Under the pieces are notes generated by a model. The model searched no databases, was not told the DNA's origin, and worked only from the letters and a program-made list of their open reading frames with translations. The translations under genes and the position numbers were made by a program. DNA of 64,000 bases from Paraspadella gotoi (lineage: Eukaryota > Animalia > Chaetognatha). Below are positions 36,301-39,982 of this stretch, piece after piece. Numbering within the stretch: the first letter of the stretch is position 1; every line of letters begins with the position of its first letter. The stretch is from assembly GCA_051294375.1 (NCBI GenBank), contig JBJCIZ010000239.1, forward strand, positions 4,593,834-4,657,833, in the 5' to 3' direction.

Positions 36301-39300
36301 TATGTGTTCTATCATTTGTTAATGATCTTTGTTAGTGATCTTTGTTAATGATGAAAAAATAGAAGGAGAATTTTTTTAGATTTTTTTTTATTTGAAAATC
36401 ATATCCATAGGATATTTACTTTCCATATTGAGCTCGAATTTTTTAATATAAACAGCTAGGGAGGTATTGACTATTGAGTAATCCATATCATATTCTGCAA
36501 AGAATTCTAATGAGCTTTGACATTCTTAATAAGATACAAAACATTTTTGGGCGACTTGAGTCTTGTGTTCATTTTTATATCATCTTTGATCAAGGTTTTA
36601 ATCTCCAATCATATCAGGATACAACTGAATACATTACATTGCAAATCTTTTTAAATGTATGTATCCTTATTGTTATTACGAATTTCTTTATTATCTGTTA
36701 ATTTTTTATTTATCAATGAATAAATCTTCTTTAATAATTTTATTGGTTCTGGGTCTGGTAGTAGCCAAGTAGTTTACAAACTTAATGCTGATACTCATAT
36801 TTCATGCCATCTGCAAAAAGTATTTTTTGGGCTTAAAATATAGTAATAACAAATTGAAAATATAGTTGATAACAAAATTATAACAATAAAAGAAAATATA
36901 TTGTTTTTTTTATCTTTAAAAATAAATATAAGCAAAATATTTTGATTCAGAAATTGCCTATATTTTATTAAGAAAAATCATTTCTTTACCTAGGCAATTT
37001 CAGTAACACTTTGCTCAGTTAATCAGGCAAAATATTACCTAAGTTCACCCCTTAGAAAATACGGGAAAGCCAAGATGGGCAAACCATTTGGTCTATCAGA
37101 TCCATCTTACTGATCTATTTCCTGCGATGATATACTTTATGAATGTGTTAACTTCTCTCATTTATAATTTTTGCGAATCTGATAACTGAAGAGACAGTAA
37201 TGAAAAGTAATGGAAAGTGCATCGCCAGGTTGAGGCCTGTCGCCTGAAAGTGTTGCTGCTGTTGTTGCTGAAGAGACAGTAATTATTGATATGTGTTAGT
37301 TCAATATAAGCAGTCCCTGAGCTTCGGATCAGGCTGTAACACCGTGTTGCAGGCGGGTTAAGCGCCCCATCCCTCTTAACTGCTAGGCGGCCACCGGGCT
37401 AGAACCCCGGACCTTTTGGGTTGGGAGGCGAATTACTTGCCTCCGTCACCAATGGCCGCTGATGAACGGTTGGTGGATTTTAGTCCACCATATAACCAAA
37501 AAAAACCCCCCTCTCCTTCTCAGAACGCTCTCTCCGACTTTTCTCAAAATATCTGACGGTCCCATCCGATTGGGCAGCGGAAGCCGAAAAGGCCGTCCTC
37601 CGAGTCTACGAAGCCTTAAAGCGACATTCCGACGTGGAATTAGATCGATTCGAACTCGTGGGCGGATTGGCTAAAGGAACTTCGACGCGATTGGCTGCCG
37701 ACGTCGACGCCGTGGTTTATTACGACGCCTACGAAGTAGATAGAATCGGACGAAATCTGATCAAAAACTATCAAACCTTTCTTGCTGAAACAATGGAGGG
37801 ACATTCTCGTCATGTTCTTTATTTGCCGGAGGAAACCATTCGACAGAACAACTTTTTGCTCTCTTTCAAATACAAAGGTTTCGATATAATTTATAATATA
37901 ATATATATTATATCTTAATACAAATATAAGATGACTGAAGCGTCATGCTTAATTGCTTATGGATGGGATAACTTATGCAATGCCCGACACATACTGACAG
38001 ACCGAATTAGCAACGAAAAAGTGATTCATTGGGTTGCTCGCGATTACATGCGGCACAACTAAAAACGATTTAATACGCTTTTTCAAAAATTTTCCCAGGT
38101 TTCGACATCGATCTAGTCGCCTCGCGTAAAAAATCGCGCGAGGGGAAGGACAAAAATCGGGATCAGTGGAGAAAGGAATTCTTTTTAACGATGGAGTTTG
38201 GCTTCGAAGAAAACTGCCAAAAATCTTGTCTTCAGCCCTCAGAGCGTCGATTGGATGACCAAAAAAGCGATTTTTGCCGGGACCTCGCCAGGCTGGCCAA
38301 GTATTGGTCTCAACCATTTTTACACCCCAAAGATTGGCGGCCTGTCCTACATTTTCGAGTTGCTTGCCGTAAAAAGCAGCGATGAAAACCGAAGCAGAAT
38401 TTGGAGAACCACTGTACATATATGGATTTTTTGAAAATTTCTTCGATCTGTAATAGATCTAGAGAAAATGGTTGTCAAAGTTTAAAAGGCAGCTGTTTAC
38501 GATCCACAGTTTGGTACCCGATTCTGTCTTAGAAGAGGTTCCCTTGCTTTCTAAACCCCCCGTCAATCCTTTCAAAACATGTTGAAAATTTGGGAACCTC
38601 TGAGAGAAGAATTTTTTAATGTCTTTTCCACGGCAGCAGCCGAAACCCTCCAACGATTTAGAGATTATCCAAATTCTCGGCCAACGGATCTTCAACTTCT
38701 AATGAACCCTTTCCTTTGTACTGTTTTTCTCCCCCAGCCAATTCCGTTTCATAGTTTATCCCTTCCGTGTTGCCAAATTTCCAACTTGGACATCCGGCAT
38801 CATTTCTCTGAAACGGCAGCCATAACTCTTTACCAAGCCATTTACGACATCGAAAGGGATAAGTTTGTCCTGCCCAACATGACCATCTTTGTCCACAAAC
38901 GAGTCGCCGAAGAGGCTGAGTCAACGAGTCCAGAAAATCCAATGGCCAAACGTCTGGCGATCAACATTTCTGCGGCCTTTGTGGTCAAGGCTTTCCATGA
39001 AACAAATTTTGATAGCAATTGTACTGAGAGCGATTGTGAGGGGAAAACTGTTGCCGAAGATGAGCACTCACCAACCAGCCTGAGTAAGAAAATTCAGGAA
39101 GTTAAAAAAAAACATGGGGATATCGTCCAGCGACTATTCATCTTAGAGAATGAATTGAAAGAATTTTGCGTTTGGTGGATTAAAGCGAAAGCCGAATCCC
39201 GAAAAGAAGGTGATCATATATTATACATTCCTTTTGAACTTGATTACTCCATGATTGTTCGTTTCGATTTAGGGAAAAAACTAGAGACAAAACGAAAATG

Positions 39301-39982
39301 TCAATTATTGTAATGAATTATTTTCAAAGAATTATTGTACTCTGAAAATACAGATGTAAAATTTATAAGCCTTTATAATATTTTTAAAAGGAAGATATGT
39401 AGCCATTAATGCCGATGACTTGGTCTAATTAGCTTGTGAGCCTGAAATTGCCGAGGTTCCCAGCTTTTTGAAAATATTGCCCATGTTTCGACACCCATCT
39501 CGTCGGCGTAAAAAATCGCGCGAGGGGAAAAGACAAAAATCGGGATAGAACTAAAGAAAATACCAAAAATCTTGTCTTCAGCCCTCAGAGCGTCGATTGG
39601 ATGACCAAAAAAAGCGATTTTTGCCGGTTCCTTGCCAGGCTGGCCAAGTATTGGTCTCAAACCATTTTCTCCACCCAAACAATCCATCCCTTTTTCCCCC
39701 GCTCAATTACCCCCCCCCCTTTCTCAACTCACAAACCTCAATGTAATGCATCACGGCGTTGGCCAATCCGTGGAACTGAACGAAGCTCCGCTCTCCGTCG
39801 AACGCCGGCGTCCTGGCGCGAAGGCGTCGTTGACAAGCGGCGCCGCCGAAGCCCAACGGACAGACGCAAGTGAAGGCGTCGGGAGATTCGGCGACGCATG
39901 TGGCGCCGTTGCGGCAATCGGCTCGCGCGCATGCGCCGCCGCCGCAGTCGCCCACGTCGATGCCGTAGAGGGCGTGGCCTTG

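Follow-up and report, generated by a model that had tools for sequence, protein, structure and literature searches.

A spliced OAS-like gene with a predicted prenylation signal, nested in an agrin-like intron of the chaetognath Paraspadella gotoi

Results

The window, a stretch of 64,000 nucleotides from the genome of Paraspadella gotoi, had been proposed in an earlier, sequence-only reading to carry a gene for an OAS-type nucleotidyltransferase (NTase) that ends in a prenylation signal. All the motifs on which this proposal was based are present on the forward strand within 37524-39313, in the translated window frames: the GGLAKGT loop (37661-37681), DVD (37700-37708), DID (38104-38112), RLAKYW (38290-38307), SYIFELL (38345-38365), PVNP (about 38556-38569) and GKKLETKRK-CQLL (39272-39310), followed by a TAA stop codon (39311-39313). 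They are spread over three frames of the window. The open reading frame of 244 codons described at the end of the gene was also recovered, when counted from the ATG at 38579 to the stop; it has 252 codons from stop to stop.

Nine public runs from three studies cover this stretch (11 runs listed, none recorded as RNA). Contigs were compared with the window, from X8, X1, X5 and X6 over 37300-39460 and from X6, X7, X9 and X8 over 38262-39520; X8 and X9, apparently one data set filed twice, were counted once. X6 cover is absent in the intron and beyond 39365, and X8 cover ends at 39235. The RNA status of the runs is conjectural: the tool labels X6 ‘DNA?’, and we infer that it is RNA from the precision of its join across the intron. 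The contigs share 22 differences from the window, namely 18 indel events and 4 substitutions, except that the correction at 37755 is absent from X8, which also puts a 2-base deletion at 38556 and not at 38560. With these 22 corrections, a single frame stays open for 518 codons between the acceptor (37524) and the stop, and the frameshifts of the window are thus assembly errors. Polishing, which had been suggested as a check on the gene, therefore went in its favor, since the contigs do not uphold the frameshifts and the corrected frame is open through CQLL and the stop. What the contigs describe is a spliced gene with an open frame and not a pseudogene.

The first detected coding exon (37524-37877, + strand) encodes the N-lobe of the NTase. 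It is preceded by an AG acceptor (37522-37523), and spliced contigs match from 37522. No ATG is found in this exon, and no start exon was recovered from the contigs or by an upstream search. A phase 1, GT-AG intron of 221 nt (37878-38098) follows, bridged in X6, X8 and X9 and retained in X1, X5 and X7; loose contig ends show the exon end at 37877 joined to GTTTCGAC. According to the contigs and the corrected translation, the last coding exon (38099-39313) encodes the third catalytic aspartate (D121), a helical lobe resembling OAS1_C (to about 38660), the C-terminal extension, the CaaX box and the stop codon. Both ends of the intron (37874-37884 and 38097-38105) carry AG/GTTTCGA, as a target-site duplication after an insertion would leave. 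In X6, four contigs with 30-base overlaps span 37522-39365 and represent a graph path, not a single molecule. The CaaX box and the stop are covered without differences by one X6 record (38869-39365) and one X1 record (39241-39460). One X8 contig carries 28 bases 5′ of 37522 that do not align to the window, in agreement with an upstream exon or leader. An X8 contig also reaches exactly 30 bases past the exon start (37494-37523) before it ends; a stretch of at least 30 nt with AG at its end is thus suggested, either an exon common to several transcripts or a trans-spliced leader. The sole candidate in 32000-37300 for a putative upstream exon with a canonical donor lies at 32735-32762.

Upstream of the first detected exon, the intron contains a high-copy tRNA-like (SINE-type) repeat on the - strand, mapped at 37300-37499 from depth and a relaxed ARAGORN search, which may extend further 5′. 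Its depth is 1e4-1e6, versus 10-100 for the gene, and an X5 DNA contig (37470-38078) connects repeat, exon and intron. Downstream (39463-39679, + strand), the beginning of the last exon recurs as a partial tandem copy in decay, which has lost the acceptor AG, reads DTH in place of DID and has an internal deletion. The whole gene is nested in antisense orientation inside an intron of an agrin-like gene (30970-39990, - strand) with Pfam EGF and LamG domains. The intron lies between host-gene exons near 30970-31160 and 39730-39990, and the best PDB match of the exon at 30974-31156 is agrin (E 5e-34). Since the enclosing gene is an agrin-like EGF/LamG gene, the locus is of animal origin. A GC-rich island (34147-36230) in the same intron, which may be a mobile or viral-type insertion, carries + strand open reading frames of 255, 92 and 166 codons (34743-35510, 35503-35781 and 35667-36167) with no match in Pfam, NCBIfam or PHROGs.

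The catalytic aspartate triad is intact, with D59 and D61 encoded together with the loop at 37661-37708 and D121 at 38110-38112 (numbering from codon 37526), and it aligns with the triad of the CD-NTases. The N-lobe piece of the window, which is broken by frameshifts, matched NTP_transf_2 with an E value of 0.007, under the gathering score. Its best PDB match was CdnC (E 0.018), OAS chains were absent from the matches up to E 10, and its Atlas neighbours were all bacterial SMODS clusters (0.94). Pieces of the window also gave weak matches to CBASS cyclase models (NF041116 and PADLOC cyclases); the N-lobe piece scored 19 bits on NF041116, for which a cut-off of 200 is set for the whole protein. 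Pfam OAS1_C (PF10421) did not match the window-native pieces, all of which are cut by frameshifts, nor did the Mab-21 family of Pfam match these broken pieces; no cGAS chain appeared in the PDB searches, and single frames read through stops gave no OAS match. Homologue searches with the N-lobe found nothing, and a control OAS query, from squirrelpox virus, returned itself alone and no animal OAS. The motifs taken as signs of an OAS-type core are present but not specific to OAS, since bacterial clade-C CD-NTases share them.

To score the corrected protein, a profile was built from bacterial proteins of one CdnC subclade, recovered with a CdnC-type motif (120 loci fetched, 100 with the motif in frame, 57 long enough for the profile). 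Residues 20 to 278 matched this profile with 40 bits, and 500 shuffled sequences reached 4.3 at most. The N-lobe contributed 33 bits, a score inflated by the resemblance of the selection motif to the query protein, and the C-lobe 10 bits. On a 53-sequence CdnC profile the corrected protein scored 35.5 bits, versus 18.5-27 for human and pig OAS1 and 33.8 for two-unit OAS2, while other bacterial CD-NTases reached 53-62 and true CdnC 547. OAS is reported to nest within CD-NTase clade C (PMC10732462), and 35.5 bits is therefore in the range expected of an OAS.

Motif scans for OAS references returned 0, 2, 2 and 1 loci, one of which was an OAS, that of squirrelpox virus (OAS1_C, E 3e-61). This OAS-like protein (L003:1293-2402, - strand) has a strong OAS1_C match and lacks the catalytic loop and DxD. 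Unanchored alignment to it was weak for the core (z 0.9, 180 of 1000 shuffles reaching the score); for the C-lobe z was 2.6 (28/1000 shuffles), and 24 of the 57 CdnC C-lobes equalled or beat the viral protein. Single CdnC-like proteins gave pairwise scores of 32 bits and squirrelpox OAS none. Four gap-free C-lobe blocks, hand-chosen from the OAS alignment, showed 20/68 identities to squirrelpox OAS, versus a mean of 12.4 and a maximum of 17 for 37 of the 57 CdnC-like proteins; 23/68 were counted by eye for pig OAS1. Pig OAS1 also aligns gap-free over the 26 residues up to RLAKYW, where CdnC requires an insertion, and the spacing of the C-lobe as well as its GF and Y-x-x-ELL motifs agree with OAS. 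Since the motifs of the C-lobe resemble OAS more than CdnC, this spliced animal gene is likely to encode a very divergent protein of OAS-superfamily type.

The residues K66, R195 and E233 are reported to drive the activation of human OAS1 (PMC11359028). When the protein was aligned by eye on pig OAS1, K50 and E203 stood at the places of K66 and E233, and Val165 at that of R195. The acceptor-pocket residue T187 of pig OAS1 is replaced by a leucine; the same position is altered in sponge OAS that also make 3′-5′ links, and sponge OAS are reported to be dsRNA-independent (PMC6307210). The initial description of the protein as a dsRNA sensor is thus not supported, given the loss of the R195 equivalent and the behavior reported for the sponge enzymes.

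The C-terminal extension (38670-39271, + strand) comprises about 200-210 residues with no recognised fold and includes an acidic linker near 39005-39070. Searches of Pfam, PDB, PADLOC, NCBIfam and PHROGs, of 90% clusters (restricted to longer proteins) and of 1.84 billion representatives returned nothing for it, and no CaaX box was seen in a second species; these blank searches say little, because a true OAS query likewise found no animal OAS. Atlas matches to the extension, at 0.79 or lower, were disregarded. Two single-sequence AF2 models had pLDDT values of 36.5 and 37.5, and a fold search with them, uninformative given such poor models, gave no match at E 0.001.

Comparison of the contigs revealed that the extension exists in several versions. 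A +1 frameshift at 39010-39011 (+ strand) is present in X8 and X9 and was inferred in X5 from a change at 39011 plus one extra gap. The protein of this allele ends at residue 419 and lacks 99 residues together with the CaaX box, which fits either a polymorphism like that of p42 and p46 of human OAS1 or a dispensable tail. A short X6 branch exits at 38423 into a stop at a loose end. Two further blocks diverge from the main sequence in frame: block 1 (38734-38868, + strand; X1, X6 and partly X7), with 27 changes and no stop, and block 2 (38965-39240, + strand; X1), with 44 changes, of which 25 are listed with no stop among them. Base differences amount to 16-20% in these alternative blocks, with no stop in the 44 readable changed codons, and block 2 rejoins the main sequence before the CaaX tail. 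Synonymous changes account for 18 of 52 versus 20% expected (p 0.012) and for 5 of the 7 in X7; dN/dS is 0.59 for block 1 and 0.30 for block 2. The X1 depth at 39198-39270 is 140.2, versus the 140.17 obtained by summing if both versions feed one tail contig, which indicates that both versions end in CQLL. The blocks may be alleles or gene-converted paralogues. Since these in-frame blocks lean synonymous, the extension is taken to be translated, under constraint and highly variable, and loss-of-function versions exist alongside it. High variability is common in immune genes.

The last 14 codons (39272-39313, + strand) encode a basic patch, CQLL and the TAA stop, with five K/R and two acidic residues among the 11 residues before the cysteine. 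CQLL is the CaaX box of Rap1B, reported as a substrate of GGTase-I with a polybasic region (PMC7958859), and a leucine at the X position favors geranylgeranylation by this enzyme (PMC8357416). For OAS1 variants, a CaaX box alone is reported not always to be sufficient (PMC8357416). Among the 1772 stop-terminated frames of at least 20 codons in the window, 34 have a cysteine at position -4 and two end in C-x-[VILM]-L, namely the CQLL frame and a 35-codon frame at 20402-20509 (- strand). The latter, which ends in a basic run followed by CLLL and is unrelated to this gene, was treated as a chance occurrence, but may instead be a terminal exon encoding the end of a prenylated protein. The prenylation signal originally proposed for the gene is thus a credible GGTase-I box, with CQLL and the stop found in the window and in X1 and X6 contigs. 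Because the protein ends in the four-residue lipid-attachment tag of Rap1B, CQLL is predicted to be geranylgeranylated and the enzyme to be membrane-anchored like human OAS1 p46.

Discussion

The contigs show the exon structure, the open frame, the catalytic residues, a path in a spliced run that includes the tail, the tail-less allele and the versions of the extension. The reading that best accounts for them, to which we give a probability of about 0.6, is an oligoadenylate synthetase of non-vertebrate (OASb) type that is tethered to membranes, in which a prenyl anchor would be combined with a core making oligoadenylates and an extension used for sensing or docking. GGTase-I would add a C20 lipid to the cysteine of CQLL, the basic patch would reinforce membrane binding, and both would hold the enzyme on intracellular membranes or endomembranes. 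The core would polymerise ATP into short oligoadenylates with 2′-5′ links, possibly mixed with 3′-5′ links, and these may serve as second messengers in immunity, read by a receptor distinct from RNase L. Its trigger probably differs from the dsRNA switch of vertebrates, and the strongest candidate for the sensing or docking part is the variable extension.

Prenylation most likely arose independently of that of vertebrate OAS1 p46, as judged from the tails, in which no common sequence was detected and which are of unequal length (210 versus 50 residues). Human OAS1 p46, geranylgeranylated on CTIL (PMC8357416, PMC7612834), has in common with the P. gotoi protein an NTase lobe with an aspartate triad, a helical lobe of OAS1_C type in the same order and spacing, a C-terminal CaaX box with leucine at X and a natural variant without CaaX (p42 in human). 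However, the tail is lost by a frameshift here and by a splice-site change in human, sequence identity is very low, the loop reads GG and not GS, and the R195 equivalent is missing. It is a doubtful further step to see in the gene a convergent prenylated OAS whose fast-diverging extension represents a new domain for pathogen sensing or effector function and whose anchored and unanchored alleles segregate as the counterpart of p46 and p42.

OAS-like genes have been reported in sponges, cnidarians, molluscs, springtails, brachiopods, hemichordates, amphioxus and Ciona (PMC6307210; PMC10732462, among 60 of 324 OAS1_C rows). The non-vertebrate OASb of sponge, cnidarian, mollusc, springtail, amphioxus and Ciona (PMC10400998, PMC6307210, PMC10732462) are likewise single OAS-type units outside the RNase L system, and in sponge OASb the T187 position is changed as it is here. 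RNase L is reported to be restricted to jawed vertebrates, and non-vertebrate OASb did not couple to it in yeast (PMC10400998). In the published descriptions by which OASb were compared, neither a prenylation signal nor a similar extension was found reported. Rap1B (PMC7958859) shares the identical CQLL behind a run of lysines and arginines, a likeness limited to the anchor, since the P. gotoi protein has no GTPase domain and has two acidic residues within the upstream 11.

The core could instead be a bacterial clade-C CD-NTase of the CdnC/CBASS_cyclase_a type that entered by a horizontal transfer of its own, with introns, tail and prenyl anchor acquired later and a cyclic oligoadenylate, not linear 2-5A, as product; we consider this origin unlikely. 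It would fit the CdnC match in the PDB, the bacterial SMODS neighbours in the Atlas and the weak NF041116 and PADLOC cyclase matches, as well as the 32 bits of pairwise alignment to CdnC-like proteins versus none to squirrelpox OAS and a score on the CdnC profile (35.5 bits) above that of mammalian OAS1. Scattered eukaryotic sequences inside bacterial clades have also been reported (PMC10732462). However, a motif similar to the query had served to select the CdnC set, which inflates the N-lobe score, and the C-lobe alone reached 10 bits; the profile score is far under those of real CdnC (547) and other bacterial clades (53-62); squirrelpox OAS, with its degenerate N-lobe, is a poor comparator; and the spacing and the GF and Y-x-x-ELL motifs of the C-lobe are OAS-like. 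CdnC (PDB 6p80; NF041116) does share the LAKGT loop, DxD, the third aspartate, RLxKxW, S-x-x-x-E-L and PVN-x-x-x-N. In contrast to CdnC, the P. gotoi gene has an intron, an animal locus, the 210-residue extension and the CaaX box, it does not reach the family-level profile score, and it lies in no CBASS operon with an effector and no HORMA/NucC operon; none of 55 CdnC-like C-termini ends in CaaX.

Rather improbable is an ordinary invertebrate OAS-like enzyme with a weakly constrained tail, in which CQLL would be fortuitous or the locus drifting towards loss. The frameshift allele of X5, X8 and X9, which removes the tail, the X6 branch at 38423 into a stop, the decayed copy downstream, the chance basic CaaL end of the 35-codon frame in the same window and the dN/dS of block 1 would agree with it. 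Nevertheless, such a box is expected by chance at a given ORF end in about 1 of 1771 cases, the tetrapeptide is exactly that of Rap1B and follows a basic run, blocks that diverge by 16-20% without a stop converge on the same tail, and the changes in X7 are mostly synonymous (5/7). A pseudogene, a mis-assembly or bacterial contamination is highly improbable, for although 18 indels break the frame of the window and bacterial proteins are the closest database matches, runs from three studies correct these indels, repeat, exon and intron are continuous in DNA contigs (X5, 37470-38078), splicing is GT-AG and the gene is located in an agrin-like intron.

The gene is real and its enzyme class is known, and the architecture of an OAS-like core followed by an extension and a CaaX box was not found described. 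A CaaX box on OAS1 has been described for vertebrates (PMC8357416, PMC7612834), and our literature search, which was at abstract level with few subscription papers, found no report of a prenylated invertebrate OAS. If prenylated OAS occur elsewhere in animals, the membrane targeting of this enzyme class arose repeatedly or is old. Natural alleles with and without the tail, together with the divergent extensions, provide material for testing localisation, trigger and product.

Other features of the window

Two exons of a sulfotransferase gene lie at 3777-4103 and 4622-4921 on the - strand, the first matching Sulfotransfer_1 with an E value of 0.00075. A threonine-rich, mucin-like exon with no family match is found at 6790-7464 (- strand). 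Three tRNA or tRNA-like genes are located at 18134-18217 (+ strand), 19322-19396 (+ strand) and 21571-21643 (- strand), among which one is a tRNA-Ser(TGA) and one has an irregular anticodon loop.
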